Below, piece after piece: positions 5,062-55,854 of a DNA stretch of 64,000 nucleotides. The stretch is from NCBI GenBank assembly GCA_051362555.1, contig CM120646.1, positions 11,346,001-11,410,000 of the forward strand, read 5' to 3'. The translations under genes and the position numbers were made by a program. The stretch's first letter is position 1. Every line of letters begins with the position of its first letter. The DNA is from Lingula anatina (lineage: Eukaryota; Animalia; Brachiopoda). The notes under the pieces are model-generated. The model did no database searches. It was given only the letters and a program-made list of their open reading frames with translations, and was not told the DNA's origin.

Positions 5062-6496
5062 TTAAGAAGAATACTGGCGAATGTCATAAATGTAGACCAC
5101 GGTGCCTTCTAGTGTGTTTGTCTCAACGCCTCAAACCCAGGCTTCTCTACCGCAGCCGATACTGGCGAAAATTTGTTCGATGATAGTTCAAAAAGGTCAT
5201 AGAGTGCGGAATGTGACCTCGTGACTGTTCTATTCATAAGGGGCACGCGACAAATGACGAAGACGCGTTTTCATTGGTCGCTGAAGTGGATTAAGCCCCC
5301 AGTGTGTTTGAATGACCTGGGGAAACAAATACAGGTAGAGTGGGGTGTTGATAGTTTGATTATAATATGTACCTGCAAATAGCATATTGAACACCGAGTT
5401 TTAAGTGAGTCGGTAATATTGGAAGTTGCAAACTAAGGTAAGTTGGCTGTCTGAAAGTTGCTTTACGTACCTGTAATAACCTTTGGACTACACGTTTTTC
5501 TCGCCTTTCTGTTTACGATTGTTATGAATTATAGAATGCGCAAAGCTCTAAGAAGTATTTTTCCCGATCGTTTCATGCAGTTTTTGATATCACTTGTTAA
5601 TAATGCCAATGTATCATTACGATCAGAAGGCTTGCATAAAAGGTAGATATATTTTATTGAAAAAAAAAATAATTAAGGTAGCTCTCTCCAACAGCGGTAT
5701 GGTCATAAGATGAATAGAAGGAAAATGATAATAGAAAAAATGTTGAAGGGAAAAATGGGTAAGAGGTGAAAATTAAAACTATGAACTAAGTACAATTATT
5801 CGTAAAAAGTATTCTTACAAAAATTAAAATATAATATTGCTTAAAAAGTCCAGGGTCTACAATTTGTCTACAGAATCTATCAGTGTCTTATTTTGATGTT
5901 TACAATTCAGTGGACTTCGTGATTATGCAAATTCCTGGAATGAAATTCAATGACTATAGAAAAAACAACATGTGTCCGTGATTCACCGTTTCTCCAAAAA
6001 GCTGCAGGTTCAAACATCATCTAGATGCCAGTATTGGGACTGTGCAATGCCTTCGACGATATTTCTACGGTCCAAGGGCTTTGGATTAAAAAATGTTGAA
6101 TGTTTAGTTTGAAAAAAAACATAGAATCTACGGAGGCCATGAATCCATTCGATTGCATTCGCACTGCTATCTTCCGTTTCGACGGACGCCACACGAAATG
6201 GGTTATACAGGCATGGCAAATGTAATTTAGTCAAAACATCTTTTGCATCAAACCCTCTTTTATAACACCTTTCCTACTTATTTAACTAACAGATCGCAAT
6301 AGGGAAATAATAATTAAATGTTTTTGTCGAATTTAACTAACAGGCATCTAATGCCGTATTTCAACATATTGACATTAAACGATCTCCCCAACCAGCTGGC
6401 TGTCAATATCACAGTATACGGCCTCAGCAGCTCTGTCTACGTCCACGTGAAGTTTCATCTCTTCATTAGCCATGTCAAAACATTGATATTTCCACA

Positions 6497-11989
<5,493 letters not shown>

Positions 11990-12093
11990 CTTAGCCTGGC
12001 GCACATTTAATTTTGTATTACTATTTTTGCAATGATGAACATATTTTGGGCGTCGTGTTATTGCTTGTGAATTTGCACACGCCATCCATGCGC

Positions 12094-12101
12094 TATTTAT
12101 A
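12094..12101 (-). promoter_or_regulatory. Putative TATA box of gene A
   Basis: TATAAATA about 105 nt upstream of the ATG; at the same position in B (20402-20409) and C (29107-29114). Confidence 0.55.
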
Positions 12102-14425
12102 AATAACGTGTCATAGAAATTATCATTGACTAATAGTTTCACTTTAATAGGGTAGGCTGTTTGGTCGGCTTTGGTGAATAAAGCTTTCAAATATTATTAT
12201 TACATCTGACTCCAGTGGAGTTTTCTTTTTAGAGGTCCGTCATTTATATATGAATATGTACAATGTATGCATATGAATGGCATTGATGAATATTTTGTTT
12301 TGAAATGAATGATGTCCGACTTCAATCGTCAGTAAATTGAGAAAGTGCTACCTGGGGGAAAAAGTGTTCTATGGCGAACTTACACACCGATTTCTTATAC
12401 ACCTGTTTTATATTCAAAAGAAATATGTATTTATTTAGAAAGTTCAATAGCCATCAAAATGACTCATCCTTATGACAATGTTTTTTTCAATCGTTCTGTT
12501 TTTACTGTTTTTACAGTTAGTCATTACTGAAGTTGAAAGTAAAAATAAGAATAATGGCCTTTTTACGAAAAGAGGTCTCTTTTCTTTTAATAAACTTCTG
12601 CAGGTAGTTCGTGGACCTCTTTCAACATACCTGCATAAATATATGCATTTTGTTGCTGTATCTTCTGCTATCTTCAAATGTTGAGCAATTTCTCTCCCCT
12701 ACCCCCACTTTCAAAAAGGGCAGTTTCTGACTGTAAGGTTCACATTTAATTAGTAACATTATTTTCTAAAATAAAACACTTGAGGCTCCAAATTTTGTTC
12801 ATATGTAATGGAACTATACCATGTTAACAAATCATTCACCAAATACCAATTTTGTTCTCAATTCTCAAGGATTTGATTTCAATTTATGAAAATCTATAAT
12901 ATATGACCGCTTGTGACCTTTGACCCTTGACTTGTTGTCATTTATTAATGATGTATGAAATTGATTGTCCATTCACTTACCCCTATAAGGATATAACTTT
13001 AACCATATTGATGAAGTAAGCATTTTCTCTCCCCTACCCCCACTTTCAAGAGGACATATTTTGAGCGTTAGGTTTACATTCTTTTATTTGATTTTCTAAA
13101 ATTAGACAGCTGAGGCTCCATATTTCTTTCATAAGCATAAAATTATGCCTTGTTTACAAATCATTCACCAAATACCGCTATCTTACATAAACAAAAAATT
13201 GAAAAAAAATGTTTTGGTTTTAATTTATGAAAAATCCCCATAAATGACCTCGTATGGCCTTTCAACCCATTATCAATGGCTCTTGACTAATTGTCATACA
13301 TTCGTGACTTTTGAAATTAATTGTCCCATTCCTTACTTCCATACGGATGTACAATAGATTGATATACCTGTTATCATGTACATGTAGATTATTATTGATA
13401 TACTAAGCGTTTTCTTTCCCCTTCCTCCATTTGAAAAAGTCCTTGCTGCTGCAGGGATAGAGTTATATATGGTGTGGAAGCGCACAAAAAGCTACCAGCG
13501 TGGGAAGGCTTTCACACTTATTTGGACATTACAGCTATAGGACCTGCAAAAAATCACCACGAGAATTCGTCCATTTTATCGCACGATGACAAAAAATCAG
13601 GCGTCTGACTCATGGGCTTATACAGAATAAATTGTAGCTTGAAGTGACATATTGACCACCGAGTTGTTAGTGACAGTTAAATTTGGCTGTCTGAAAGTTG
13701 CTTTTACGTACTTATAACGTTTAACCCGCACGTTTGTACTAGGCCTTTTGTTTACGATTGTTATTTTACATTTTTTCTACAGAAGAATGTGCAGCGCTTT
13801 GGTACATCAAAGGAGTGTTTTTTTTCGACCGTTCCATGCTATTTTTGACATCACTTGTTAATAATAGCCAATGTATCAGTTGAATCAGAAGGCTTAATTT
13901 GCATAAGTTATAGATATTTTATTAAAAAATTAATTTACAAAAATACAAGAAGAGAATTTAAAGATAAAATATATAAATGGGCAAATGCAAAAGAAAAAAT
14001 ACAGCAACAATTTGAAGTTGTGATCTATGATACAGTGAACGTCAAAGATCAAAATTCATAATAACAGAGACTTTGACAGTATCACAATAAATCAATTTGA
14101 ATTTTTATGGTTTGTGCAGTCAGACTTTGCAAATAACTAATGAAATCAAGGAATTGTAGTCATGTGCAATATCCAGTTATATGTCTTTGCATTTGAATCA
14201 AATGATAAAAAATTACCTGTATACGATATCGTTCTAAAGGCAATCAACAAAACTCAAAACTTAAAATGGCACTTATATCCAAAAAGATTACCACTGAAAT
14301 TGGAAGTCAGGTAAAATGCTTTCACCCGATGACCACCGGCTGGTGAACTAAAATAAAATCATACAGTAGTAATTTCCTGAATTCATTTGCACTTTTTGAT
14401 AAAATATCCAGTAACTAGTCCGCGA

Positions 14426-17400
14426 CTAGTATTTTTCACCAGGAATACACCGTGTCAGGCCCTTGAAAAGCCTTTCATCTATATTGACCAAGTCCACATA
14501 GTTCTGGGCCTTAGAGGTCAGATCTTCCAACTGTTGGCACAACTCTTTGAACGAAGGGCGAAAGGCTGGTGGCTCTCTCCAACAGCGGTACATGATGCGG
14601 TACCTGGGACAAAGTAAGATGGAGGGTAGCTTGGCACATTTTAATGTTTGTTAAAACAGACGGTTGTGTGAAAAAAAATTAAGAACACAGACCACAAAAT
14701 TTAATGACAAATTGATAAGTTGAGTTGAACATTGTACAAACCAGAATGTACAGTACTGAGGTTAATTGAATATTACGGTCGAAAAAAAAAACTACTGAAT
14801 TGCGATCTACAAACCCGTTTTGTGTCACTCCGTCTCTTGTCGCTGCTCCTTTGTCTCATTTAATGCATTTATAGACACAGAGACAACATAAAAGTACACA
14901 GTGTATGAGAGAGAGAGAGACACAGAGAGAGAGAGAGAGAGAGAGAGAGGTGGAGATGGGTACTTACACTTCGTATGTGCAGTGTTTAGGTCTCATCATA
15001 CGGTAACCATTCTCCAATTGTTGCCGTAGTATCATACTGGATATGCCTGGGTAGGGAGTGCAACCTGGGCAGGGAATTAGAATTTTTATTTTGCCGACAA
15101 TTACGTTCTACTCATGTGAATGCTTACATGTGGAGCACTTGTTTGCAGTTCACAAATTATACTTTCTACTTCCTTATTACTGTTTTGAAAAAAGGAAGAA
15201 TTGTGATCAACGCATATTTTTTACGTTTACTCTACTTGCTGTAAGGTCTTTAAAAAGAGGATAAATATATACCCAAAGTCACTATCTCCCACATAAGAAT
15301 ACCAAAAGACCATACGTCGCTGTGGGTGGTGTACACGCTGTCCTTGATTGATTCGAGCGCCATCCAGCGGAGAGGTAGGAAACCCTAATAAAACCATAGG
15401 GATTGTTGATAATTGCTTTTGTGTTGATTTTCATGGATCATGTCTGTCTTGTTAAATCCAGTTCAAAGGGTTGGCAGACAGAGATATGACAAGATAATGC
15501 AGTAGACGAGGGGACTCACTAAACGAACCTTTGCACAGGTACTTGTATTGAAAGATGAAGACAATATACTCCAGGTGGTTACCCAGTTAATTAAATCTGA
15601 CGCATTAGATTGTGTATTCGCAAAACTGAGAATGTTATATAGCTATAGTTGTGTGGTCCAGTGCAACGTACCTGTGACCGGCTCTCGTATTCTCGAATCA
15701 GGCTGACATCTCGCGCCAAACCGAAGTCTGATATTTTACAAGTGAAATGTTCGTCCACGAGCACATTGCGGGTTGCCAGGTCTCGGTGGAGGTACTATAA
15801 AAATAATACATGGTTAAAATAAAGAAAGATCAGAATGTCACGACTAAATTTCATCAATTAACCGCGAGCTTATGTGTATGGAACGTTTTTTTCTCAGTTT
15901 TAATTATGTCATTCAAATACATTATTCTCATTCAGCAAGTATAGCCATTCAACAAGTGTTGTAAGTAGCTGCATTTTGTGCTTAAAACATTTTACTAGTC
16001 CCCCCTGCAAAATTACCAGTAGGACATTATATAAACTTTAACTTAATTTTAACGTGTGAGCTGGAGTAGAAATGCTACTCCCCAGAAGACAATTTACTCT
16101 ACCAAATGCCAACCTGAAAAATGTTACCCAAAAATCCTCCCGCTGAACGACATTAAAATATAATTCTCAATTTTTACGAAAAGTGGTTATTTACCCCCAG
16201 TTCCGCTATATGTGTCATCCCACACGCTACCTCATAGGCAAATGTAAGGAGCTGTTGTGCTGTAAACTTGCTACAGCCGTATGTGTTACTGTAGTAGGTG
16301 TTTCCCCGACCATTCCGCAAAACACGCTGCAGGCTGCCCATTGTCTGGTACTCCATCACGATAAACAGAGGGTCTGGGAAAGATAAGAGAACGTTTTTAT
16401 TACAAAACCATAAAATACAACTCTATAAAGCAGAACTTACAACTAAAAACGTGTGCGTGTGTGTGCTGTTTATCCGTTTTTAACATTGCTCAGAGTAAAT
16501 ACTAGCTCAAATGACACTACACAGTACTGGAGGTTAGTTTTTTTTAATCAAATACCATAGAAAATTATCAGGTATACCTTCTTTGGAGGATGTAGCTATT
16601 AAAGGAACAATATTTTTGTGCGCCGGTACATTTTTCAGTGTCTCCATTTCTGTTTTGAAATCTTCTTTTTCTTTGAACATTGTATTTCCTAGAAAGACAA
16701 TGAAAAATCACATAAGAAATCGGTGCATTAAATTTTTGTTTGTATATCTCACATTAGATTTAAAAATAATTGACATGATGCATGTTTATCAAATACATGT
16801 ACATTTATACAAGTCTGCCAGACACTACATTTCATATCAGCTTTTAGTTGCAGTACGGTGTGTTTTTAGGTTTTTAAAACATGGAAAGTCAAGGCAGATT
16901 AACGACTGAAAAAAAATGGTATCTTCTACACCAAAGCATCCTATCTACCTTTCAAAATGTTAACGGCCACAGTTTTCACTTTTTCCTCGACCTCCATGTA
17001 GCCTTTCCATACCTCTCCGAACTGACCCTCGCCCAGTTTGCAGGAACGATCGAACTGGAGCTCCTGGATTGAGATTTCCCCAGCGCCTGTCTCCGACGAG
17101 GTGTTTTCAGTGCCTGCAGGGTTGCCGGCGTCATGTACCGGAGGTTCCAGCTGGGGCAAAATACGTAAACAGAATTACAAAAACAGTTGACTTTCATTTA
17201 GATACAGTGTATGGCCATTTTAAGAACCTAAGTTACCAGTTGGCAGTTGGCAGATTAAAGATAAATGACAATTTACTGTACACAGGGAAAGAATAGTTTA
17301 TTCAATGTTCAGCGGTTATAGCACAATGGAACATGATGAAATACTAGTCCTTTGTACATTACACCTGTAAACTGCGCGAGTTTATAATGGTGTGTAGATT

Positions 17401-20297
17401 GACTGATTAGTGAAATATTAAATGGTTCACCCCCCGTAGTTCCTCGTCTTCTGGGTCCTGATCCAGTGATCTTCTCCTTTTCTTTCTTGCCTGGTAGTAC
17501 TAAACATTCAAATATAGTGTTATTTTCGGGTTAAGAGGGTTTAGAGGGTGGTAAGGGGGGTACTGACCCCCTGTCGGTTTCTAAAAATATATTCAACCAA
17601 TATATCTTAAAATTATAATTTTGACTTACTAGTTCTAAACCGTATGAAATGGCACCGAGGCTTAACGTGCGCTTCTTTCGAGTTATTCACGTAACAGTAT
17701 GTAGTATGGGATATGTAGGCAACATGCGTAAAGTATTCGAGAATTCCTTAACATCAGACATGCCAAAAACACTTATACTTACATCAATTCTTCGGCTGTT
17801 TGTCCGAGCGTTTAACCTTGACAAATGCAATGCTTAATAAAACAAATAATATGTATGGCTATACGTGTGGACTACAGTGGATCAACTTTTAGGACTCATT
17901 TAAAATGGATGTTGATTAAATGTGACACTTAATCTAGTCTCCTGTAATTTCGTGGTGTGAAGTATGGGTGCATATGATTTAAAATTAAATTGATTGTAAA
18001 CATATACTAGTTTGAGTTTATTCAATCAATTATTGAAAAATTATAATAACAATTTCCCAATTTGGATTTTTTAAAAAATTATCTTTCTGCCTTTTTACAC
18101 AGCTTATTAAAATGGCCCATATATTGGTTCAAAATGTGTTATATATCTGATATAAATACATTGTACGATTAGGTTAAAATGAGCCGATGAGAGGAGAGAT
18201 AAATTTGATCAGAGAAAAATAAGAAGAATGTCTATACCTCTAGAGGCCTTTTTTCTTCGGTTGTATACGATGATAAAAGTGATAAGAGGTCCAAGCAAAA
18301 GAGCGATAGCAAACAGCAATATGGACCAAAAATGAAAATATTCAGAGTTCACTTGGCTCCCTGGAACAATTCTGATCCATTTGGTTGGTTTTGGAATATC
18401 CGTCGAATTAACTGTATGAAAATAAAAAGCCCGATAAAGTAAAAGCCATTTTGTTTTTACCAGACACGTATCTTACTAACAATTTGGTGAGTTGACAAAA
18501 GCATGACCTTTATATACAATAACAACATTTTTACTTCTATACTAGCATATGACAATGCGGAAAACCTCGACTAGGTAGTTTGCCCATTTCTGGATATTAA
18601 AATTGTTCAGTTTAAAACGCATGAAGTAGCGAATCTCAACTTACTTGATTCATCACTGTGGGTAGAAAGAAATACTTCACTTCGGATTTCTGATGATCCA
18701 CATTGATAGTGTCTTTTATTTGAAAACTTTGTCACATTAATCTTGGCGGTAAAACTTTGGCATAGACTTGAGTTTAAGATGTTGCATTTGATGTCTTTGG
18801 CAAGGGTGACGTGGAACTGTTTCCCATCCCTGTACCACAATGTGTCGTGGGCGGGATGTTCCCCGGGGTACAAGTAGCTTGTGACACACTCTAAGGTTAT
18901 ATAGGTTGAAGTGGCGGCCTTCTGAGAAATGTGGACTGAGGTAGGAGGAACTGGAAAACGTAACTTATAAAATTTGGTGCATTGATTAAAAGGAAAACAA
19001 ACCTTGAACAAAAAGGAACGTGTATACATGTTTTTCATCAGAACTTATTACTGAATTAGGTCTTGGCTAAGCCTGCTACAAATGGTTTATATATCTGATT
19101 CATTCGTAACGAATATTGATTCATTTATACAATATAAATAAAATACTGACAGTATCGTCTGCACTTATAAACATATATGTTGTCAAACGTGTGTACACAA
19201 ATATTATTTGGGTTGTGTTACATTCTGTCTATAAACCTTCCAAAATAAACTATAAAAGTCACTTTCGTTTGTCAAATACAATCGTAATTGATGTCATTTA
19301 CCTATTACTCGAACAGTCTGATATTCATCTGACGTGCTAAAACTGCCTTGGTCAATGAACATAACAGAACATGTGTAGTTGCCTCCGTCCCAGTAGCTGG
19401 CATTAGATATTCGTATCAGACAGTTAATGGTGATTAGATACATGTATGGCACAGTCTTAGTACATGTCTCTGAAATGTTTCTTCCGATAAAAACACTCAT
19501 AGGTTTAGTTATATTCACTACAGTTGACCGTAACATGTAGATGGGCCACACATCTCTACCGTTCAGCGGGTTAATTTTCTTCCAGATGACAGTAAACCCA
19601 GGGAAAGGCGACGTAGAGAAATTGCACCAAATTGAAAACGAATCGCCTTCGTCTATTGTTTGCAAAGATGGTACATTTTCTGACACTAATTCTGAAATGA
19701 AATGATGTGATGAAATGACAGTTTATGGTGATTAGACGATATGCTTCTACCCCCCCCCCCCCAACCCGACATGACCTCCCTTACCAACCGACGTACGTAC
19801 AATCACGCAACTACTCTCACGCACATATACTCGTAAACTCACAAAAACGCCCATACAGTACTTTATGTCATAAAATTCTCACCCACATATAATATTTACA
19901 TGTGGAATATATAAATACCAAAGAAACTTCAAGTAAAATAATTAATTACCTGCTGTGTCACTTTGGATTGAAAGATTAAGAAACGAGTTAACATAAGTAA
20001 TAGCTGTACCTCAGCAGTACTGCATAACTATTAATTACAGAAATCCAATTTTTGTGTATCAGATTTTGCTACAGCATATTCCTTTCGATGTGGGGTCTAA
20101 CAAGAGCACAGGAATGAGATTGGTGAATCCAATGCAAAAAAGTGTTCACTCAAAAAGGTGCAGCACACTAAAAACATTATAGCATTTATCATATATATAC
20201 GTATCGATATATACCTACCTTTCATAATTCCACAGGCAGGGGCTATCAATATGATACCCCCTAAAATTAATATGGTAGTTCTCATGTGGGACGCCAT
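14426..20297 (-). CDS. Gene B: chimeric two-Ig receptor with a tyrosine kinase domain lacking the beta-3 lysine (probable pseudokinase)
   Basis: Exons: 20219-20297 leader; 19302-19691 V-Ig; 18645-18950 Ig2; 18238-18411 TM; 17783-17832; 17431-17490; 16949-17150 ([12 protein letters not shown]); 16578-16688; 16195-16373; 15672-15794 ([11 protein letters not shown]); 15273-15384 (PLRWMALE); 14968-15064; 14426-14603. All phases compatible; open to ...IPGEKY*. Confidence 0.85.
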
Positions 20298-22795
20298 CTT
20301 AGCCTGTCGCACATTTAATTTTGTATTACTATTTTTGCAATGATGAACATATTTTGGGCGTCATGTTATTCGTTGTGAATTAGCACACGCCATCCATGTG
20401 CTATTTATAAATTACGTGTCATAGAAGTTATCGTTGACTAATACTTTCACTTTAATATGTTAGACTGTTTGGTCGGCTTTGGTGAATAAAGCTTTCAAAT
20501 ATTATTGTCACATCTGGCTCCAGTGCAGTTTTCTTTTTAGAGGTCCGTCATTTATATATGAATATACCTGTACACTGTATGCATATGAATGGCACTGATG
20601 AATATTTTGTTTTGAATGAATGATGTCCGGCTTCAATCGTCAGTAAATTGAGAAAGTGCTATCTCGGGGAAATGTGTTCTATGGCGAACTTACAAACCGA
20701 ATTCTTATACGTCTGTTTTATATTCAAAAGAAAATTTAGTTGAAAGAAAGTTCAATAGCCATCAAAATGACTCATCCTTAAGACAATGTTTTTTTCAATC
20801 TTACTGTTTTTACAGTGAGTCATTACTGAAATTGAAAGTAAAAATAAAATAAAATAAAATAAAATAAAATAAAATGAAGGCCTTTCTACGAAAAAAAGCT
20901 AGGTCTCTTTTCTTTTAAGAAACCTCTGCAGGTGCTTCGTGGACTTCTTTCAACATAGCTGCATACATATGTGCATTTTGTTGCTGTATGATCTGCTATC
21001 TTCAAATGATGAGCAATTTCTCTCCCCTACCCCCACTTTCTGACTGTAAGGTTCACACTTAATTAGTAACCTTATTTTCTAAAATAAAACAGTTGAGGCT
21101 CCAAATTTTGTTCATAAGTATGGGACTATACCATGTTTACAAATCATTCACCAAATACCAATTTTGTTCTCAATTTTTAAACGATTTTGGTTTTAATTTA
21201 CGAAAAAATCCATAAAATATCCCATTATCAATGACCATTGAGTTGTTGTCATGCATTAATGATATATGAAATTGATTGTCCCTTCTCTTACCCCCTTCAG
21301 GATATATAATGCACTGGTAACTTTAACCATATTAACGAAGTAAGCATTACCCCTATAAGGATATATAATGCACTGGTAACTTTAACCATATTAACGAAGT
21401 AAGCATTTTCTCTTCCCATCCCAACTTTCAAGAGGGCATATTCTGAGCGTTAGGTTTACACTTTTTTATTTAATTTTCTAAAATTAGACAGGTGAGGTTC
21501 CAAATATCTTTCATAAGCATAAAATTATACCTTGTTTACAAATCATTCACCAAATACCATTTAAACAATAATTAAAAAAAAACCGTTTTGGTTTTAATTT
21601 ATGAAAAATCCCCATAAATGACCTTTCAACCCATTATCAATGACGCTTGACTAATTGTCATACATTCGTGACTTTTGAAATTTATTGCCCCATTCCCTGT
21701 TTTCATAAGGATGTACAATTAATTGATGTACCTGTTATCATACAGATATAGTAAGCGTTTTCTCTCCCCTCCCCCCATGTGAAAAAGTCCTTGCTGCTGC
21801 AGGAGTGGGATTATATAAGGTGTGACAGCACACAAAAAGCTACCAGTATGAGGTTTTTTGGACACTAGAGCTATAGGACCTACTAAAAATCACTATGAGA
21901 ATTCGTCCCTTTTTTCGCACGATGACCGAAAATCAGGCGTCTAGCTCATGGGCTAATAGAAAATAAATTGTAGCTTCAAATGACATTTTGACCACTGAGT
22001 TGTTAGTGACAGTTGAATTTGAACAGATCAGAATGGGGAATTGAACAGGTAAATTAAAGTAAATTGGCTGTCTGAAAGTTGTTTTTACGTACCAATAACG
22101 TTTGACCCGCACGTTTGCACTCGGCTTTTTGTTTACATTGTTATAGGTTTTTCTACAGAAGAATGTGCAGAGCTTTGACACATCAAAGGAGTGTTTTTTT
22201 TTCGATCGTTCCATGCTATTTTTGACATCACTTGCTAATAATGCCAATGTATCAGTTGAATCAGAAGGCTTAATTTGCATAAGTTATAGATATTTTATTA
22301 AAAAAATTACTTTACAAAAATACAAAAGGAAAATTTAAAGATAAAATATACAAATGGACAAATACAAAACAAAAAAATACAGCAACAATTGTGAACTATG
22401 ATACAGTGAGCGTCAAAGATCAAAATTCATAATAACAGAGACTTTGACAGGATCACAATAAATCAATTTGAATATTTATAGTCTGTGCAGTCAGACTTTG
22501 CAAATAATCAATGAATTTATGGAATTTTAGTCACGTACAATGTCCAGTTATATGTCTTTGCATTTGAATCAAATAAAAAAAATTACCTGTATACGATATC
22601 GTTAATAAAGACAATCAACAAAACTCAAAACTCAAAATGGCACTTATATCCAAAAAGAATTCCACTGAAATTGGAAGTCAGGTAAATTGCTCTCACCCGA
22701 TGATCACCGATTGTTGAACTGAAAAAATCATACAGTAGTAATTTTCCAGAAGTCATTTGCACTTTTCGATAAAATACCCAGTAACTAGTCCGCAA

Positions 22796-23370
22796 CTAGT
22801 ATTTTTCACCAGGAATACACCGTGTTAGGCCCTTGAAAAGCCTTTCATCTATATTGACCAAGTCCACATAGTTCTGGGCCTTAGAGATCAGATCTTCCAA
22901 CTGTTGGCACAACTCTTTGAACGAAGGGCGAAATGCCGGTGGCTCTCTCCAACAGCGGTACATGATGCGGTACCTGGTACAAAGTAAGATGAAGGGTAGT
23001 TTGGTACATTTTAATGTTTGTTAAAACAGACGATTGTGTGAAAAGAAAATAAGAATACACAGACCACAGAATTTAACGATGACAAATTAATTAGTTGAAT
23101 TGAAACTTGTACAAACCAGTATATACAGTACTGAGGTTAATTGAATATTACGGTCGAAAAAAAACGACTGAATTACGATCTACAAACCCGTTTTGAGTCA
23201 CTCCGTCTCTTGTCGCTGCTCCTTTCTCTCCATTAAGGTATTTATAGACACAGAGACAACACAAAAGTACAAAGTGTATGAAAGAGAGATAATTCTATTT
23301 CTTCTTTAAGAAATTTACAGACAGAGGTTCACTCTTGCGTTCAGCAAGAAGTACAAAGTGTACAGGGTAT

Positions 23371-23412
<42 letters not shown>

Positions 23413-26400
23413 TGGAGATGGGTACTTACACCTCATATGTGCAGTGTTTAGGTCTCATCATACGGTAACCATTCTCCAGTTGTTGTCGTAGTATCATACT
23501 GGATATGCCTGGGTAGGGAGTGCAGCCTGGGCAGGGAATTAGAATTTTTCTTATACGACAGTTACGTTCTACTCATGTGAATGCTTACATGTATTTTATC
23601 AATTTATTTTGAGGAGTGCTTGTTTGCAGTTCACCAATTACACTTTCTACTTCCTTATTATTGTTTTGAAAAAAAGAGTTAATAGCAAAGTGCATGTCTT
23701 CACGTTCATTCTAAAAACATTTAAGGCTTACAAAAGAGGATATATATACCCAAAGTAACTATCTCCCACATAAGAATACCAAAAGACCACACATCGCTGT
23801 GGGTGGTGTACACGCTGTCCTTGATTGATTCGAGCGCCATCCAGCGGAGAGGTAGGAAACCCTAATAAAACCATAGGGATTGTTGATAATTGCTTTTGTG
23901 TTGATTTTCATGGATCATGTCAGTCTTGTTAAATCGAGTTCAAAGGGTTGGCAGACAGAGATATGGCAAGATAATGCAGTAAACGGAGGGACTCTCTTAA
24001 AGAACCTTTGCACAGGTACTTGTATTTCAAGATGAAAACGATATACTCCAGGTGGTTAGTCAGTTAATTAATTCTGATGCATTAGCCTGTGTATTTGCAA
24101 AACTAAGAATGTTATATAGCTATAATTGTGTAGTCCAGTGCAACGTACCTGTGACCGGCTCTCGTATTCTCGAATCAGGCTGACATCTCGCGCCAAACCG
24201 AAGTCTGATATTTTACAAGTGAAATGTTCGTCCACGAGCACATTGCGGGTTGCCAGGTCTCGGTGGAGGTACTATAAAAATAATACATGGTTAAAATAAA
24301 GAAAGATCAGAATGTCACGACTAAATTTCATCAATTAACCGCGAGCTTATGTGTATGGAAAGTTTTTTCTCAGTTTTAATTATGTCATTCAAATACATTA
24401 TTCTCATTCAGCAAGTATAGCCATTCAACAAGTGTTGTAAGTAGCTGCATTTTTGTGCTAAAAACGTTTTACTAGTCCCCGTGCAAAATTACCGGTAGAA
24501 CATTATATAAACTGTAACTTAATTTTAATGTGTGAGCTTGAGTAGAAATGCTACTTCCCAGAAGACAATTTACTCTACCAAATGCCAACCTGAAAAATGT
24601 TACCCAAAAATATAATTCTCAATTTTTACGAAAAGTGGTTATTTACCCCCAGTTCCGCTATATGTGTCATCCCACAAGCTACCTCATAGGCAAATGTAAG
24701 GAGCTGTTGTGCTGTAAACTTGCTACAGCCGTATGTGTTACTGTAGTAGGTGTTTCCCCGGCCATTCCGCAAAACACGCTGTAGGCTGCCCATTGTCTGG
24801 TACTCCATCACGATAAACAGAGGGTCTGGGAAAGATAAGAGAACGTTATTATTACAAAACCATAAAATACAGCTCTATAAAGCAGAACTTACAACTGAAA
24901 ACGTGTGCGTGTGTGTGCTGTTTATCCGTTTTTAACATTGCTCAGAGTAAAAACTACCACAAATGGCACTACACAGTATTGGAGGTTAGTTTTTTTAATC
25001 AAATACCATAGAGAATTATCAGGTATACCTTCTTTGGAGGATGTAGCTATTAAAGGAACAATATTTTTGTGCGCCGGTACATTTTTCAGTGTCTCCATTT
25101 CTGTTTTGAAATCTTCTTTTTCTTTGTACATTGTATTTCCTAAAAAGACAATGAAAAACCACATAAGAAATCGGTGCATTAAATTTATGTATGTATATCT
25201 CACATAAGATTTAAAAATAATTGACATGATGCATGCTTATCAAATACATGAACATTTATACTAGTCTGCCAGACACTACATTTCATATCAGCTTTTAGTT
25301 GCAGTACGGTGTGTTTTTAGGTTTTTAAAACATGGAAAGTCAAGGCAGATTAAAGACTGAAAAAAACAAAACGGTATCTTCTACACCAAAGCGTCCCATC
25401 TACCTTTCAAAATTTTAACGGCCACAGTTTTCACTTTTTCCTCGACCTCCATGTAGCCTTTCCATACCTCTCCGAACTGACCCTCGCCCAGTTTGCAGGA
25501 ACGATCGAACTGGAGCGCCTGAATTGAAATTTCCCCAGCGACTGTCTCCGACGAGGTGTTTGCAGTGCCTGCATGGTTGCTGGCGTCATGTGCCGGAGGT
25601 TCCAGCTGGGGCAAAAATACATAACCAGAATTACAAAAACAGTTGACTTTCATTTAGATACAGTGTATGGCCATTTTAAGGATCTAAATTACCAGTAGGT
25701 AGTTGGCAGATTATAGATAAATGACAATTTACTGTACACAGGGAAATAATAGTTTATTCAAAGTTCAGCGGTTTTAACTAAATGGAACATGACTAAATAC
25801 ACATACTAGTCCGTTGAAACATTACACCTGTAACATGCGCGACTTAATTATGGTCTGTAAATGACTGATTAGTAGAATATTAAATGGTTCACCCTCCGTA
25901 GTTCCTCGTCTTCTGGGTCCTGATCCAGTGATCTTCTACTTCTCTTTCTTGCCTGATAGTACTAAACATTTAAATATAGTGTAATTTTTCGATTAATAAG
26001 GGATCCAACTGCTATATACACAGTACACTAATTTCGTCTATTACACTTTCCATTTAAAACAGTCGTGACAAACATAACTTCATCTTCCAATATGAATTTT
26101 GTATAATTATGTTCAAAAAGCCAAGCCAATGTACAGTACTTGCTAGTAAATATAATTAATTTTCATTTCTTTTCACGTGCGATTGCAGCCATATCACAAT
26201 AAAATTATATATATACCATGTAGAAAAAGTCTTGTGGAGTACTAGCTGTTACAGATTTTGGTGTACATTCAAGCACTTAAAATATAATTATATCTTCCTA
26301 GACCAACCAGTTTAAACTTAAAAAATCTAACCAAATTAATCTTTAAAAATCTATCGAAAAAAGCTGAAAGAAGAGAAAGTTTAGCTTGGACGTTTCCAAA

Positions 26401-29220: not shown

Positions 29221-32200
29221 ATGGAGTTCCACGGGAGAACTACCATGTTAATTCTAGGGGTAATCATGTTGATAGTCACTGCCTGTGGGATTACGAAAGG
29301 TAGGTATATATTGATTCGTATATATGATAAATTCAAATATCAATAATTAGTATGTTTTTAGTGTGCTACACCTCTTTGAGTGAACATTTTTTTTGGCATG
29401 GGTGATATTCACTACAGGCCCTTAGCCAGGGGGGGTTCGGGGGGTTCGAAAGAACCCCCCTTTTTGCTGGAAAAAGGTCCACTCTGGGTAAAATTTGACC
29501 TAGGTACATGGGGATTATATGGTAAAAGGTCCACTTTTTCAGAAAAATAACCCCCCTTTTCAAATTGCTGGCTACGGGCCTGCACTAATCTCATTCCTTT
29601 GCTCTTATTAGACCCCGCATGGAAGGGAATATGCTGTAGCATAATCTGATACAGAATAATTGGATTTTAGTCATTAAAAATAACGCGGTGTTGTTGATGT
29701 ACAGCTATTACTTATATTAAATAGTTTCTTAACCTATTATTCCAAAGAAACACAGCAGGTAATGGAGTTTCTTTCGTATTTATTTTTTCTTTATGTAATA
29801 TTGTAATTGGGCGAGAATGTTATAATATAAAGAAGGATTAACGAGCGTAAACGGGTGAGAGTATTCTTCTGTGTGAACATACGTTGGTTGGTTGGGGCAT
29901 GTCGGGTTTGGAGGGGGGTGCAGGTGTTTTAGAAGCATATCATCTATTCACCATAAACTGTCATTTCATCACATCATTTTTATTTCAGAATTACTGTCAG
30001 AAAATGTACCCTCTTTGCAAACGATAGACGAAGGCGATTCGTTTTCAATTTGGTGCAATTTCTCCATACAGCATGCCGCTGGGTTTAATGTCAACTGGAC
30101 GAAAGTTAACCCGCCGAACGGTACAGATATCCGACCCATCTTCACGTTACAGAGGACTGGAGTCAATATAAATAAAACTTTCATTGACAGAAACATTTCA
30201 GTCACGGTGACATTACTAAAGAATATGTCATATCGTTGTCGGATACAAATATCTAATGCCAGTTACTGGGACGGGGGCAACTACACATGTTCTATTAAAC
30301 CCACTGGCCATGGCAGTCTTACCACCTCAAATAAATATCAGACTGTTCGAGTGATAGGTAAATGACAAAAAATTACGATCAAATTTTGCTTTTATATAGT
30401 TTATTTTGTAACGTTTATAAACGTAGTAAATAATGCAATCCAAACAATATTTGTGTACAAACGTTTGACAATATATATATATATATATGAATAAAAATTC
30501 GTTACGAATGAATCAAATATATTAATCATTTGTAGCAGGCTTAGCCAAGACCAAAACCACGTTGTTAAAGGTTTGTTTTCCTTTTATTCAACGCACCAAA
30601 TTTTATAAATTACGTTTTCCAGTTCCTCCTTCCTCAGTCAACATTTCTAAGAAGGCCGTCACTTCAACCAATATTATCTTAGAGTGTGTCACAAGCTACT
30701 TGTACCCAGGGGAACATCCCGCCCACGACATACTGTGGTACAGGAATAGGGAACAGTTCCACGTCACCAGTGCCAAAGACCTTAAATGCAACAGTTTAAA
30801 CTCAAGTCTATGCCAAAACTTTTCGGCCAAGATTAATGTGACAAAGGTTCCAAGTAAAATATATCAGTGTGCTTCATCAGACATCCGAAGCAAAGTAATT
30901 CCTTCTAAGCAAAGTGTTAATTCAAGTAAGTTGAGATTCGCTACTTCATGCACTCTAATATATTTGATATCCAGATGTAAGCAACCTAGTCGAGGTTTTC
31001 CGTCTTGTCATATGCTAGTACACGAGTAAAGATGTTGTTATTGAACATAAAAGTCATGCCTTTGTTAACTCGCCAAATCGTAAATGAAAATACATGTAAA
31101 TCTGCCAAGAACAAAATGGCTTTCACTCTGTCGGTCTTTTCTTTTTATGCAGTTAATTCCAGAGGCATTCCAGAACCAACCAAGTTGATCAGAATAGTTC
31201 CAAAAAGCCAAGGAAACTCTGGGTATATTTTTTTTTGGTCCATACTGCTGTGCGTTGTTGCTCTTTTCCTGGGACTTTTTATCATTATAATGATCGTATA
31301 CAACCGAAGGAGAAAGGCCTCTAGAGGTACAGACATTCTTCTTATTTTTTTCTCTTATCTAATTTAAATCTCCTCTGATTTGTTTATTTTAACCTTATAG
31401 TATAATGCACACTTTTGCACGTCTTTTGACAAGATATGGGTCCGCTTATTAAGCAGAAAGACAGAACGATTGTAAAAAAGGTAGAAAGGAAAAATGGAAA
31501 AATTAAATTGAAGAAATTTATGTAACTGTTTAATAATTAATTTTATAACGAATTAAATGCCTTATTTTAAATCATATACACCCATGCTCACAAAAAGAAT
31601 TGACAAAGGACTAGCATACGCATAGGTGCATAAGTCAAATTTATTCACCATCCATTCTTAAAGGGATAACAACTGCTCATTTTAGCCACAAAATTAATTT
31701 TCCTGGAGTAAACGACAATTTCCCCATACTTACTAATGGTTAATGAATCTATTCCAACATTCAAAGTTATATTTTTTTCTAAAAAGTTTGGTTTTTATAA
31801 TATCCTCTCAACAGATTATTACAAAGAGTAAAAAATGAAAGTCGTAAAAATGATCCTCCACGTCTGGTGTTGGACAGATCACAGATCACAGATACATTTT
31901 ATTTGTTTATTTATAGCGGTACATACCTCAAGGCAAAACACTAGGACTAACCGCCGCCGAAGACGTGATGTAAGTATAAGTGTTTCTGGCATGTCTGATG
32001 TTAAGAAATTCTCGAATATTTTACGCATATCGCAGACATATGCTATACTACGTACTCTCACGTGAATAACTCGAAAGAAAAGCACATACCAATAGAACGC
32101 AAGCACACGTTAATCTGTGTCCGAAGCAGAAAACTGGTCTTCAATCTCATAATTGTATGGCTCTTTTGGGCTTGAACTTTCGGTTTTTTTCAGCACGCTT

Positions 32201-32439
32201 GGACGAATTTGTTTTCTTGTGCTTTTCTTATTATAACCGTTTTATACAATAAACATTGAAGATAATATTTTCTATCTATAAGTGTTAAACGTTAAAAATA
32301 TCAAATCCCATTGCAGGCATTGAGGTTAAACGTGGAAGGACTCATTTATGCGGACCTTGATATTATCGGCAGGCCCCCAAAGAGAACGACTTTTATCGAG
32401 AGAGAGAAAACGGAATACGTGCAAATAAGGAGGGTGTAG
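29221..32439 (+). CDS. Gene C: two-Ig transmembrane receptor with ITIM and ITSM-like tail, no kinase
   Basis: Exons: 29221-29299 leader; 29989-30357 V-Ig; 30623-30925 Ig2; 31153-31326 TM; 31917-31969; 32317-32439 reading ALRLNVEG-LIYADL-DIIGRPPKRTTFIEREK-TEYVQI-RRV*. Canonical splice sites with matching phases. Confidence 0.9.
29415..29582. mobile_element. 168-bp MITE in intron 1 of gene C
   Basis: TIR CAGGCCCTTAGCCAG...CTGGCTACGGGCCTG; 5-bp direct repeat CACTA on both sides; the paralogous introns of A and B lack it. Confidence 0.85.
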
Positions 32440-40882: not shown

Positions 40883-42229
40883 TTGACATACATACCGAGA
40901 AAAAATACAGTCATTTCTTCCTAAAACACCCCTAAAACCGAATAAAGTGACCCTATATCACGCTCTAGAGATGTTATACAGAATAAACTCGTCCACGTGA
41001 GCTGGTCACCTCCCGCCAAATTCTTACGTAATGTCTGACCATTTTGGTCAATTTTTGCTAAATACTTGTCGTGGACATTTAACTGTCTTGAGAAGTATTT
41101 AATCAACCGTCGACACTGACCATGCACGTCTCAGCTGAGCCACACCTAGCTGGGACTGCTGCGGAAACAAGGTCCCAAGGCAAAACCTCTACTTTTTAGT
41201 GACATTTCTGATAAAAAAGGAGCGTCGGACCGGAATATAGTCAAACTAATTTTTCACAAGTGCAAAGGAGAAAGAAATTTACTTTTTGGTGATATTTCTG
41301 ACAACGAGGCAGTTTCGGAATATATTCAAAATCGACGGATGTTTATTACAAGTTCACGGGAGTAATAATTCTAGTTTTTTCTTATTATTTCTGACGACGA
41401 GGCGGTTAAGGAATAAAGTCAAAATCAAACGGATGTTTATTTCAAGTCCACAGGAGTAATAATTCTACGTTTTGGTGACATTTTATTACTACGAGGCGGT
41501 TTCGGAATATACATGTGCTGGTTTTCAGAGCATTCATGTGCTACATGTAATTACAAGTTCAAAAGGGGAATGCATTTGATTTTTACCAATATATCTGATA
41601 AAGAGGAAAAATGAACAGCTTAAAAACAAAAGGTAAATAACACAACCCTCGTTAAAAAGTTATAGATTTACAAATAATTTGTATGTACGTGTGGCTTAAA
41701 TGTAAACTAATTCCCGTTTTCAAACCATACCCATATGATATGACTTAGTGTAATAAAATGATAAATAATAATTGTTAAACGTGGAAAGTTTATGCTAATT
41801 TTTTAAGAGCGTGAGAGATTTTAAATTTGTCTACTGGTACATGTACATGTAGGTATATAACGCAAGCAACGTCACTATTCTCTTGATGCCAAGAAGGTCA
41901 CATGATCACTCTGTCTTTGGCTTCCAGCATTTTAAGAGACCTCGACTGATTTAACCAAGATGTAGTCGTGAAATTCTAGACTACATCGAGGTTAAATCCG
42001 AGTTTTCCGAGAGACGCTACGCAGAAATGTCGAGTGAAGCGAGACATTTATGGGTAGCGGCTCGAGGTTGCCCTCGATCTTCACTGAAGCTTGCCTAAAT
42101 GGACAGGGTTCAGTGATCAGCATATCGCCACGGTCATATAACATCCCTAGGTATGTATATTATGATATTGAACACATTTCTTTACAAAATCGACATGCCA
42201 TTTTACTTAGATTCATTATTTCGGCACAC

Positions 42230-42465
42230 TTATTCACACAGTTTAATGGCCAGTCCGCGCCAATAAATAAACTTCGTCTCCAACGCGTTGTTCTTCCGAG
42301 GCTTCGTAAAAAGACTCAAACTCTGTCTTTGGACACTGTTTATTATTGAAAATGCAGGCAGGTCGTCAGTGAACGTCATGATCAAAAAGAGAGACGCTTT
42401 GCTTTGCCAGTGGGTAAAGGCACAGTGGGAGGTAAACCAATGCGACCCAGGAATAAACTTACATG
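42230..42465 (+). pseudogene. Truncated, degenerate copy of the family-2 Ig1 exon
   Basis: ENAGRSSVNVMIKKRDALLCQWVKAQWEVNQCDPG matches F Ig1; acceptor reads CCAA instead of CCAG; internal deletion; 3' half missing. Confidence 0.8.
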
Positions 42466-43085
42466 ATTAACAAGCGTAAAACGTCGTGTTCAATAAGGGA
42501 TATATTCTAGCTAGACCTGCTTTGTCCAGGGTACAAAATTCCAAGGTCGACTTGGGGAAAACACGTGTGCTTTTTTAGACAGCTGATTCAAGGATTTTGT
42601 AAAACCTAAAATAATTTATTTTATGTTGTGCATTAACAACAAGATCTCAGTTTTATTCTTTATAAGTTTCAGTAGGAATAATGAGTTATTTAAAGGATTT
42701 ACATAACAGATATGAATTTTGCAAAATATTGCGCGAAACACATGTCGTGGACTATTTGCAGGCGCGTAGGTGTTCTTGTATTAATCACGACTTACTCATT
42801 GACATGCCAGATCTGCGTACAGACTGCTAGCAGTCTTGGGGATATAAAGTTTAAATGCAGCGAAAACTGTCAGTACAGGTACATATGTGCGCTGATACAC
42901 ATTTGTAGTTGATTTAAGTTTTGAAACTGAAGTAGGGGCTTACTAGACTACCAGCATTTTTGCTTTGCTATATTTTGGAGGTTGTTGCAAAATTATCCAC
43001 CTACTTTGATCACAGGTATTTTGCACACAAACAGACATGAATACAGTTAATTACCAAATAATAATATCATACTTTGTTTTTACAG

Positions 43086-44931
43086 CGTGTTTTTCTTTAG
43101 CGGCGTTGCAAAATACAACATATTCTATATTTGCGCGAGAGAATGGTCCTGTCGAAATGAAATGGCCACTGTTCATTGGGGAAAATGAAGACAGGTCAGT
43201 GGTAAACGTTATGATCAAAAAGAGAGATGCTCGTCTTTGTCAGTGGGTGAAGCTACCAGTAAATGAACACCGTGAGGACATCCATTGCGACCCTGGATTG
43301 AACTTAACAATCAGCCCAAAGCATGTGTGTGTACCGAGTCCAACCAACATCACTGCTACATTTTCCTTTAAGAACAAGGGGCGTGTCGATGATGGGACCT
43401 ACGAATGTCGTTTTGTGATTGATGAGCAATGGCACGAGATGCAAGTGTATCCGAGACATTTAGTAACAACGGGTGAGTTACTTGTGTGTTTAATGTAGAT
43501 GTTTGCATCTGCCAGTACGTTATTCATATGGTTGATTTTCTTTAAAACCATCGGCTGCAATTCACTAATCTTATATAAAACTATAAATTGTCTTTCACAC
43601 TCAGCATGCCATAAAGTAATTAACCAAAATATATTTCCCTGTTGAAACGATCCTTATAAGGAATGGAACCGAAATATCTCGCTCCAGACTTAAATGTCAA
43701 GTTGATGCAGACGAAACAGATGGCGTTGAGATGTCCTATTGCTCTTCAGTCCATTCTGTCGAAATCTCAGGCGGTCAATACAAGTGTAAAGTGGAACATG
43801 CCGGTTACGTTGTTGACAGCGCAGAAGTGGACATCCCATTTAGAACAAAAGGTGACCCTGAGGAGTGTATTTTCATTATATTACAAACTCTCTCTCTCAT
43901 ATTGGTGTTGGTTATATTAAAACGAAAATAAAACTGATATTTACTTGAAGTTTCATGAAACGTTTTTACATTTCATTTCAAGTAACCAATTCCATTTCTT
44001 TTCTTTTTTTTTGTATTTTTCACATCATCTTCACCAACAGAAAACGAAACAAGTGCTGCATGTCCTGGGATTAATGACTCTGAGATTTCGACCCCTATAT
44101 TGTTGTATGTTATAACAATACTAACCTCAATTATCGTTGTCCTGGTAGTATTTGTAGTGATACTTGTCTACCTTGTCTATCTGGTATGGCGAGGTGGGAA
44201 ATCCGTGAAAACATGTGGTGAGTTACACTCATTTCAGTTTGACTCAATTACTTAACACATAACTCACTACTTCAATAGGACTTAAAATCTTGCGTCCGTT
44301 TGCCGTTTCAACGAAACTTCGTTGTAGATTAACGGAGTTGATAATGTGCATGGTTACAGGCAAAATGTAAAAATGTTTAATTTTCTTAAAACTGTTACAC
44401 AACATCATTTTTTATAGACCGAGATAGGAATGTTACGCAATTCAAAGAAAAACAGAACGGCGTTTTGCCAATTACGCACCTTACACTGGTTCAATTGAGA
44501 TCGTTCCCTTAGCAATCGAAATCGAACCTTGCATTTCCCAAACTTACGGTAAGCTTCACTCATTTCAGTTTGACATAAGTAAAAAAAACTACATCGTACA
44601 CTGTAGTTAAGATATCGCATCCATTTTCTGTTTCAACGAAGCTTCGCTCTGGATTAACGGATTTAACAGTGTGGTGAATAACTTTAAGGCATTTCAGTGA
44701 ATGCCGTTCTGGAGCATATATAGTTCAGCGATGGTTTTGCATGGTTATTCATTTGTATCGGTTCTTGTGAGTGCAAACATACTAATTTCATTACATAAAC
44801 TCATTTTGACGAAACATGGTAGGCCTACTGTAAATATTTCAGGTTCCACGAGCGGAGATAGCCACTTGCCATATGGACTTGATGTCGAGAACGGACAAGC
44901 ACTAGAAATAACTGGCATTGCCCATGTGTAA
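43086..44931 (+). pseudogene. Gene E: family-2 Ig receptor, damaged (pseudogene or shortened single-Ig form)
   Basis: Intact Ig1 exon 43086-43472; Ig2 exon has lost its 5' part and acceptor (about 43638-43851 remains); intact TM exon 44041-44217; cytoplasmic exon from 44418 is one A short versus paralogues (stop 44510-44512); terminal exon 44843-44931. Confidence 0.7.
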
Positions 44932-47651
44932 GAATATGTACTTTGCAAAGAAACACAACATCCTGTAAGTTGCAGTCTTTGATTACATGTATGTTGCAAG
45001 ATTAAGAAAGAATCGGAATCGGCATCTGCTTAAAACGCCATTATATTAACGTTCATCTTTAATCATAACAGTATTATCCACCACTTGACCCTCACCAAGG
45101 AAATTAGGATTTTTCAAACAACGATGACGAAAGCGAACCTGGAAGCGTTCCAGCGGAAAAAAAAGAGGTACAAAAGTAATCAGGAACATCGGACGAAAAC
45201 AGACTAATGACAAAAGCCCACAGATGGTCACTTTACAAACCTCGAATTTGGGGAAAGTAGAGTGTTGTCGCTTCTGTCTCAGATGGAACTACACACGGAG
45301 GGAGGTACACGCAATGGTGTGGAAAAAGAAGCAAAGCAAACAACAGAGAGAGGGTTTGAAAAGTTTTATATGTAATATCCCTTTTTGTTTTTTATTGAAA
45401 AGTAATACTTTAATGGAACTTTTATTAATTTTAAATGTAGTAGTACAGGTTTTAGTCTCTCATAACCCTTAGAAGGGCGGGATTTATTTTTTTAAAACGT
45501 GAGACTTTAATAGAGTTATTATTATTATTATTATGCATAAAGGACGGCGAGATCGGGCATAAAATTGCTAATGAAAGCTTTGGGTGTTGAAATTTGTTGA
45601 CTTTCAACCAGTTCACTTGAGAAGGCATGATTTTCATTTATGTAATGAAGATGAAGCAATTGCCAGTAATTTGATCGCAATCTAAACACGATTTGACGGA
45701 ATTATTATACCTGTATGTGAGTTAGTTTAGACGGACTAGGGCTCAATTTTCCTTTTACTCTTCGCTGTGCTTGAATACATAACTATGCCCAACTTGAAAG
45801 GCAGATCAATAAAACTAAACTCTAGGATTAAATCATTCGTTATAGTTGTCCTAAACGTGGATACATTCAGGGTCTCTAGATACCTGTACATTAAACTCCG
45901 GGAGATTCATCGCCCAATATGGATTCTCAAGGGAAAATAAGCAATTTTCTTCAATTCACGAATCATTATCTATCTATCTCTCTCTGCACTTGGATTCGAC
46001 CTTAAATAAATTTTATAAAGCCTGATTTTAAACTAAAAATTACTGGCCAGTCATAATAACAGCGACCATTTCCTATAAACTTCAATGGGAATATCGTCAG
46101 GTACGATCCAGGGGTTAAATCATAACAAGGTAAGTGAGGTTTTGTAGGAAACTGTGAATGGCAAAAATAAGCATTTTGGAGGATTTCCAAACGCATGGAG
46201 TGTACCTTTAAGCAGCAATGATGCAAAAGGATCTGGGAACGATGCAATGGAATACAACGGAAAAGGGAAAGTCCCTGACAGGGACTGTAAAATGAAAACA
46301 GACATCGGGGACGATCTAATGCAAAGACGGAGAGATGGAAAATGTATGGAAAGTGGACCCCATTTATGAAGAGGGGAGTGGAATTATACATAGAAATAAT
46401 GAGTGTGAAGTTGTACACCCACACTAATGACTTTATAAAGTCAATGAATTCTCATTGTGGTAGCGAAGTTAGACTGGCACATTGAGTGTTTACAGTATCT
46501 ACGTGAATTATGTGCAGTTTGCAGGCTGTAGTTGCTTAAGAATACCTTATGGCCTTTCTTATACATAAACATGAACACGGTTGAAAGAAAAAAAAGTAAA
46601 TAATATATTGAATTTACTTTGTTATACATCCTAGTTCCAGTGAATGACCATACTTCATGAATTCATACAGGCAAAAACATGGACAAAATTTGGGAATCTT
46701 ATTATCATTTTAGTCCTTAATCTGTGCTCTTTGAGCAACTTCATTTTCTTATTTTAAAATTACATTCTGCATGAAGAATTCTGAGTGAACTATGCAGTTA
46801 TATTAGTACCAAAGACTAAAGCCATTCTATACGATTTCTTTGAGATAAACAATAATAAGATATATAATTTGATGAATTAAGAGGAGTCTACTGTAAATAC
46901 ATTTGCGAGATTGTGACATGAATACATCTACAGTACTAATTTCACTTCACATGGTAGTTACGTATTACTCATATGCACAATAACATGTTAGAGCTTTTAC
47001 AAACTAACTTAACTTGTACTTTACTTACACGACGTTGTGACTTTCAAAAACGCGTGCGTGTTACCTTCTCGGTTTTTTTGTCTTTGTCCCTTTGCCCCGC
47101 CTCCCGCTGTGAAGAGTATTCTAGCTGCAACACAGGCTATGAGCTGAAGTGAACCCGAGTGGCTAAATTCACGTATTCATGTGATAACTACAGTCTAACT
47201 AGCAGTGATTCACAAAGGCGGTTGCCACACCCTGACCAGGGGAGTAGACAACCTACCTTATATTCAACTCATAGGAATCCTGTGTGCGTTTTCACAATCG
47301 CTCCATGATCAATATCTACTCTGACACTATTGCTGAATGTCAGCTATAGTGGTATAATTAAGTAGATATGGTATTGGTCAAGGAATGCTCGCAGATTGTG
47401 GGCTTGACGCACAAGGTGTGTTCTGTCCGGTGTCTCGGCGTGGAGTACTTCTAAATTCATAACACGCGCTTCCTCAGCGTGTGCTGACACCTGGACGACG
47501 CTTCATCATGTTTCACAATCACATACCCACAGCAGAGCAATGGATTCTATTTTTTTCTGTTTATACGTTGGTCAACCTCAAAGCAATAATACAACGGACA
47601 CAACAATGTGAAGATGACCCAAACATGTGAAGATGATTCAAACATGTGAAG

Positions 47652-48748: not shown

Positions 48749-48779
<31 letters not shown>

Positions 48780-49257
48780 TGGCCACGCGCCAATAAATAA
48801 ACTTCGTTTCCAGCTTGTTGTTCTTCAGAGACTTTGCAAGAAGACACAGAGGCTGTGTTTGCGCGAGAAAATGGCCTTGTAGAACTGAGCTGGTCACTGT
48901 TTATTGGTGAAAATGCAGGCAGGTCGTCGGTAAATGTCATGATCAGAAAGAGCAACGCTCTGCTTTGTCAGTGGGTAAAGGCACACTGGGAGGTAAACCA
49001 ATGCGACCCAGGAATGAACTTAACAATCAGCCCAAAAGACGTGCGTGTACCTGGTCCAACCAATATTACTGCTACGTTTTCCTTTAAGAACAAGGGGCGT
49101 GTCGATGACGGGACCTACGAATGTCGTTTTGTGATTGACGAAAAATGGCACGAGATGCAAATGTACCCCAGATATTTAGTGACAACGGGTGAGTTACTTG
49201 AACAGTGAGTAAAACTGTTTGCATCTGCTAGTACCAGTATAGAATAATGTAAGGTAA

Positions 49258-49328
<71 letters not shown>

Positions 49329-55850: not shown

Positions 55851-55854
55851 ACAC

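Follow-up and report, generated by a model that had tools for sequence, protein, structure and literature searches.

The question raised by this locus is whether the birth of a chimeric receptor can be read directly from genomic DNA. What is known of domain shuffling in receptor tyrosine kinases normally comes by inference from its finished products, which are old. In the stretch of Lingula anatina DNA that was analysed (64,000 nucleotides, below referred to as the window), one can see the seam, the two parent types and what is probably a haplotype from before the fusion. Four open-frame gene models were built across the window:

6497..11989, minus strand: gene A, signal-Ig-TM-JM1-kinase, 578 aa, without an Ig2 exon
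14426..20297, minus strand: gene B, 13 exons, intact ORF of 686 or 689 aa
22796..28467, minus strand: gene D, signal (start inferred)-V-set Ig-stalk-TM-kinase, 541 aa, with all catalytic motifs
29221..32439, plus strand: gene C, signal-Ig-Ig-TM-JM1-tail, 366 aa, without a kinase, head-to-head with D

As predicted from its exons and introns, gene B joins a C-like two-Ig ectodomain, in frame and within an intron, to a copy of a D-type tyrosine kinase. It has the layout of a receptor tyrosine kinase (signal, ectodomain, one transmembrane segment and a tyrosine-kinase domain), the signal peptide and transmembrane segment being assigned by eye from the translations:

20297-20219, minus strand: signal exon of B
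19691-19302, minus strand: Ig1 exon
18950-18645, minus strand: Ig2 exon
18411-18238, minus strand: transmembrane (TM) exon
17832-17783, minus strand: first juxtamembrane exon (JM1), ending in phase 0
17490 or 17499 to 17431, minus strand: second juxtamembrane exon (JM2), starting in phase 0
from JM2 down to 14426, minus strand: kinase, 7 exons

GT-AG borders were found in 12/12 introns of B, and the 13 exons contain neither a stop nor a frameshift. The breakpoints lie inside introns of two distinct parents, and because both parent introns are in phase 0 the fusion product reads through. The proposal that an A/C-type ectodomain had been fused in frame to a D-type kinase, phase 0 to phase 0, thus agrees with the flanking exons, with the intron-by-intron matches and with the open ORF. 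An alternative JM2 acceptor at 17499, 9 nt upstream of 17490, is still in phase 0 and gives the ORF of 689 aa; since the residues YYQ are included in database models of the B-type kinase, this may be the acceptor rather than 17490. A phase-1 reading of the JM2 exon was ruled out by a stop in D.

Pfam assigned Ig families to Ig1 of A, B and C and to the Ig domain of D, and PK_Tyr_Ser-Thr to the kinase exons; on Ig2 of B and C it found none (0 families). On the basis of Atlas features the Ig2 of B is C1/C2-set Ig-like (0.94). Compared with PDB sequences, Ig2 gave weak matches only (best E 0.026, SYG-2), and its 12 library matches (best 6e-9) were uninformative, no Ig family being found in the three that were scanned with Pfam. 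A single-sequence fold of Ig2 was all-beta with a pLDDT of 44 and was not used as evidence.

The seam itself lies in the juxtamembrane intron of B, which consists of three parts:

17491..17782, minus strand: chimeric phase-0 juxtamembrane intron of B, 292 nt
17667..17782, minus strand: C-like 5' stub, 116 nt, about 86% identical to 31970-32085 (score 162)
17535..17666, no strand given: filler, a dispersed-repeat fragment of about 130 nt with TTAA on either side
17491..17534, minus strand: D-like 3' stub, 44 nt, 38/44 identical to 25953-25996 (score 58)

The sequence-only reading had taken the DNA to the left of about 17530 for a copy of gene D (to about 25990) and that to the right of about 17660 for gene C inverted (about 32090), with a repeat-like fragment in between, and on all three points it is confirmed. 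Self-BLAST aligned 14891-17534 with 23355-25996 in direct orientation (91.8%) and 17667-17856 with 32085-31892 in inverted orientation (82.0%). The intron is C-like and not A-like: over its first 120 nt, 51 sites of B agree with C only and 5 with A only, and only the first 18 nt of A's intron are in common with that of B. A 13-nt stretch (12/13) lengthens the C-like side up to the TTAA at 17662-17665. The filler matches the window elsewhere at 2232-2290 (78%, 59 nt), 2313-2350 (84%, 38 nt) and 10230-10288 (71%), within repeat copies that lie near 2190-2350 and 10216-10333; its best non-self score was 50.9 bits, and 100 shuffles gave no more than 30.1.

A TTAA (17531-17534) closes the D side, and it is also found at the matching place in D (25993-25996). 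The place in C that matches 17662-17665 is likewise a TTAA (32110-32113), and a further one (10004-10007) marks the point where the juxtamembrane intron of A departs from those of B and C. This departure after 18 nt implies at least two joins in this intron. Insertion targeted to TTAA, with TTAA duplication and terminal inverted repeats, is a piggyBac-like trait. The other two repeat copies are without TTAA flanks, and by eye no inverted ends were seen in the filler. As the flanks were spotted post hoc and TTAA has a frequency of 0.9% of positions in 5-33 kb, TTAA at the seams is a lead only.

At this phase-0 intron A, B and C carry three different cytoplasmic parts, in line with the suggestion that the shared phase makes it a natural swap point. 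One ectodomain family is in this way connected to three outputs: a kinase with HQD (A), a kinase without the catalytic Lys (B) and a tail with an ITIM and an ITSM (C). The relevant features of the neighbouring genes are:

8119-8117, minus strand: Gln codon of the HQD catalytic loop of gene A
26951-26904, minus strand: stalk exon of gene D, 48 nt, GC donor, matching database protein P0005
32317..32439, plus strand: tail exon of gene C, phase 0, with ITIM consensus LIYADL at 32341-32358 and ITSM consensus TEYVQI at 32410-32427

Gene A is non-RD, with HQD instead of HRD, and its beta-3 Lys and DFG are intact. At 6372-6598 the end of its last coding exon is tandemly duplicated (105 nt aligned, 96%), the second copy lying behind the stop. 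The kinases of A and D are 45% identical and have their intron phases in common, which makes them old paralogs. In the juxtamembrane part, B and D differ by nine nonsynonymous and two synonymous changes, and five to six residues of the juxtamembrane exon of D (25605-25500, minus strand) are unlike both database copies. In the 40-residue tail of C an ITIM is followed by TEYVQI, which matches the ITSM consensus; this order was obtained by chance in 84 of 100000 shuffles, a result that holds at the motif level only. The ITIM consensus was used as given in the accessible part of the Alr preprint (bioRxiv 10.1101/2022.03.04.482883). At that motif level, C would be an inhibitory-type receptor built at the same phase-0 intron.

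The divergence of B from its relatives is a mosaic, the conserved part of which is the following block:

11527..17534, no strand given: kinase, spacer, signal exon of A and intron 1, with an identity of about 91-97% to about 19692-25996, falling to 83% in Ig1 and further beyond

For kinase, spacer and signal exon the divergence from the respective twin is about 7% (identities between B and D of 1034/1062 in exons and 1823/1967 in introns; 2121/2339 in the spacer that leads to the next ATG), and the Ig/TM part of B is 17-35% diverged from A as well as from C. Between A and B, identity amounts to 93% in the upstream part, to 92% over the signal exon and to 94% (93.7%) over intron 1; from Ig1 onward the values are 83%, 75%, 76% (TM), 65% and 70% (JM1), so that from Ig1 on the two are no closer to each other than either is to C. 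The difference between intron 1 (355/379) and the TM and JM1 exons (147/197) is highly significant (Fisher p 4e-10). From intron 2 through the juxtamembrane intron B is 68-87% identical to C, by which C itself was excluded as a direct donor of the ectodomain at the 7% age; at the protein level the ectodomain of B is 68-69% identical to those of C and A. The dN/dS of 0.82-0.90 in Ig1 indicates rapid change and is no demonstration of positive selection. The pattern is that of a gene with two seams: in Ig1 the transition is gradual and homologous, in the juxtamembrane intron it is sharp. It contradicts the proposed single duplication with both ends in juxtamembrane introns: the uneven A-B identity makes one duplication insufficient unless conversion came later, the stub is C-like over 116 nt and A-like over 18 nt, and A is without the second Ig exon of B.

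Between the kinases of B and D we counted 3 nonsynonymous and 14 synonymous changes (dN/dS 0.06), from which both copies appear to have been under selection for long. The catalytic site of B carries one conspicuous change:

16959..16961, minus strand: Asn417 of B, encoded by AAC, in place of the beta-3 catalytic Lys; AAA in D (25416-25414) and Lys in the database ortholog

The beta-3 strand thus reads VAVN in B and VAVK in D and A. The beta-3 Lys is required for ATP positioning in kinases, and it alone is missing in B, where the Gly loop, the alpha-C Glu, HRD and DFG are all present. The kinase of B is therefore predicted to be inactive (kinase-dead), although the change from Lys to Asn is one of a single base and could be an error. 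Of the new ligand/output combination that had been suggested, the chimeric pairing of ectodomain and kinase holds, and an active-kinase output is doubtful because of this replacement. B would recognise an A/C-family ligand and act as a decoy, a dominant-negative partner or a phosphorylation scaffold beside A, D and C.

The Lingula anatina entries XP_013398663.1, XP_023932011.1, XP_013398665.1 and XP_013397377.1 correspond to gene A, the kinase copy of B and gene D of another haplotype, under automatic names only (Cad96Ca-, Tie- or FGFR-like receptor tyrosine kinases). With Ig1 of B as query there was one match among 80 candidates, P0001 (Lingula anatina FGFR). This protein is gene A, likewise without Ig2 and with a model that ends ahead of the HQD motif; its 7 substitutions in 407 aligned residues suggest that it stems from another haplotype. 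The first kinase exon of B retrieved P0002 (1 of 22 candidates), whose cluster has 5 members on contigs of 4 different lengths. P0002 and P0006, on a contig of the same length as that of P0001 (448673), are identical to B in 302/303 residues, the sole exception being the catalytic Lys, and to D in 295/303. Both carry the Phe and Thr of B at the two sites diagnostic for B versus D, and the intron-derived tail of P0002 matches B in 28/29 positions and D in 25/29. The near-identity indicates that the kinase copy of B exists independently. Gene D is represented by P0005, including the stalk exon. P0003 and P0004, on two further contigs, are more D-type kinase fragments, either extra copies or uncollapsed haplotypes. 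The scaffold N50 of the database assembly is 294 kb according to the accessible text of the genome paper (PMC4595640).

The first residues of P0002 (MYYAYR), followed by a GT donor, are best derived from the end of D's TM exon, with 2 base changes and a native GT (11481 minus-strand positions; next best 5 changes). A C-type intron stub was rejected as their source, with 4 changes in C and 6 at the best site in the intron of B, versus 2 for D's TM exon. In the database haplotype the kinase copy of B thus likely still follows a D-type TM exon, an argument that uses six residues, taken from a gene model that is automatic and fragmentary. Among proteins in the 50%-identity library none had the Ig2 of B or C under 1e-10, and in the search with the C tail 0 of 4 candidates scored; the searches of Ig1, Ig2 and the C tail yielded no database protein with the ectodomain of B or its Lys to Asn change, and no C-type protein. 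Since C and its tail are missing too, the absence of the B ectodomain may merely reflect annotation.

The reading we favour, at a probability of roughly 0.55, is that B arose by a recent non-homologous or repeat-mediated join, which removed the kinase copy's own D-type ectodomain and produced a receptor predicted to be kinase-dead. In the database a D-type TM end precedes the B-type kinase, which makes a recent replacement of the D ectodomain likely. In the simplest account, a single join would have taken place between two prior arrangements that differed by about 7% and were either tandem copies or deep alleles: in one, A preceded a full D', and in the other a C-like gene, B0, preceded D. The juxtamembrane introns of D and B0 would each have been broken and then joined, such that the D acceptor stub and the C-like donor stub were retained on either side of the repeat fragment, which has a TTAA site at each end. 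The purifying selection seen in the kinase would stem from the D' period, and the change from Lys to Asn would postdate the fusion. Both donors are postulated, as no B0 tail and no second D ectodomain are left in the window. The fusion may be polymorphic within the species.

Two divergent haplotypes, A-D' and B0-D-C, could also have been falsely joined by the assembly via the repeat fragment. The repeat is located at the join, and the B-type kinase with its D-type TM end and the D-type kinase are found on separate database contigs (lengths 448673 versus 309419), as two haplotypes would look. However, the window contains no N, the filler is only about 130 nt long and 71-84% like the other copies in the window, and a non-homologous join would have had to hit the one phase-matched intron of both genes. 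Moreover, the intron divergence of about 7% between B and D is well above the average heterozygosity of 1.6% given for L. anatina in the accessible text of its genome paper (PMC4595640), and we consider such an artefact unlikely. Equally improbable, as an extension of the proposed single duplication, is an old tandem duplication with ends in the juxtamembrane introns, which would have made B at about 20% divergence and been followed by conversion that homogenised the kinase-spacer-signal block, and by loss of Ig2 and replacement of the intron in A. It is consistent with the gene order, and the strong purifying selection could then have acted on the kinase of B itself. In the window, JM2 has an additional codon and a Leu in B as well as in D, neither of which occurs in the two database copies; this fits the history just described and in any case points to conversion between B and D, so that the dating is blurred. 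Yet three extra events are required, the divergence of the D-like stub at the edge does not significantly exceed that of the kinase introns (38/44 versus 1823/1967, p 0.14), and the database ortholog of the B kinase has a D-type TM end.

It is similarly unlikely that B is a neutral by-product, real as DNA and either unexpressed as a fusion or a young pseudogene in which the change from Lys to Asn is the first decay. The lost catalytic Lys, the missing database protein for B and a JM1 acceptor that is AAG rather than YAG would agree with it. Against this, the 13 exons are open throughout, the 500 nt upstream of B are 93% like those of A, and the sole kinase change relative to the ortholog in 303 residues affects a catalytic residue, which random decay would seldom do. 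The favoured recent fusion could also be part of a broader picture, which we regard as doubtful. The cluster would then be a system of paired receptors in an invertebrate, whose V-C Ig ectodomain evolves fast and is coupled now to an ITIM/ITSM tail, now to intrinsic tyrosine kinases. The switch would be made by recombination at TTAA sites of a single phase-0 intron, several times over and with the help of repeats; B would still be segregating in the species, and selection would have silenced its kinase right after birth.

In vertebrate paired receptors (KIR, LILR, SIRP, Siglec) related ectodomains are found on ITIM/ITSM tails and on activating outputs, swapped by recombination in the cluster; the activating members use an ITAM adaptor and have a charged residue in the TM segment. 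The SAML protein of Geodia cydonium carries an ITIM. Like the paired receptors, A, B and C are clustered, share 68-69% protein identity in their ectodomains and include a member with ITIM/ITSM (C); unlike them, A and B contain a kinase of their own, and the core of the TM segment is uncharged in both. By analogy, the Lingula cluster would work like paired receptors without belonging to the vertebrate families, for which gene conversion has been described in KIR2DS4 (accessible part of PMC2768862). The Hydractinia Alr cluster, in the accessible part of its preprint (bioRxiv 10.1101/2022.03.04.482883), is likewise one of clustered invertebrate IgSF receptors with domain-level identity mosaics from exon shuffling and ITIM tails in two members, but its activating tails are ITAMs, by which Syk/Shark would be recruited, and an Fn3-like fold is found in most Alr proteins, whereas the Lingula genes encode intrinsic tyrosine kinases; the likeness is one of layout. 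The same holds for the RTK and SAML/SAMS proteins of Geodia cydonium, where a V-like plus C1-like Ig ectodomain occurs on kinase and non-kinase receptors with polymorphism and a proposed self/non-self role, and where the accessible text describes no breakpoint (PMC11926128). Gene A resembles the non-RD immune receptor kinases in its lack of the Arg of HRD (HQD), but it belongs to the tyrosine-kinase family, and the correlation described in the accessible part of that work is no test of function (PMC8463890).

Gene B is likely a clear new case of the known process of exon shuffling in a paired-receptor-like cluster, and the chimera likely real and young. With the seam, the parent types and a probable pre-fusion haplotype in view, one could trace through a population how a chimeric receptor is born, how it spreads and what becomes of it early on, in what is a candidate self/non-self or immune receptor cluster of a brachiopod. 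In the literature on Lingula anatina receptor kinases, domain shuffling and ITIM, no description of this locus was found among the matches listed; subscription journals and supplements were outside this scope, and the supplements of the Lingula genome paper could list these kinases.

Finally, the window contains a second tandem family of Ig-like single-pass receptors (42100-56700, plus strand). Its exons, all on the plus strand, are V-like at 43010-43498 and 48801-49208, with a broken copy near 42190-42460, and C-like at 43620-43931 and 53866-54348; TM exons lie near 44040-44200 and 54430-54600, and the tails are partly degenerate. Further on, at 57099-59650 (plus strand), two long open frames of 402 and 230 aa are transposase-like by eye.
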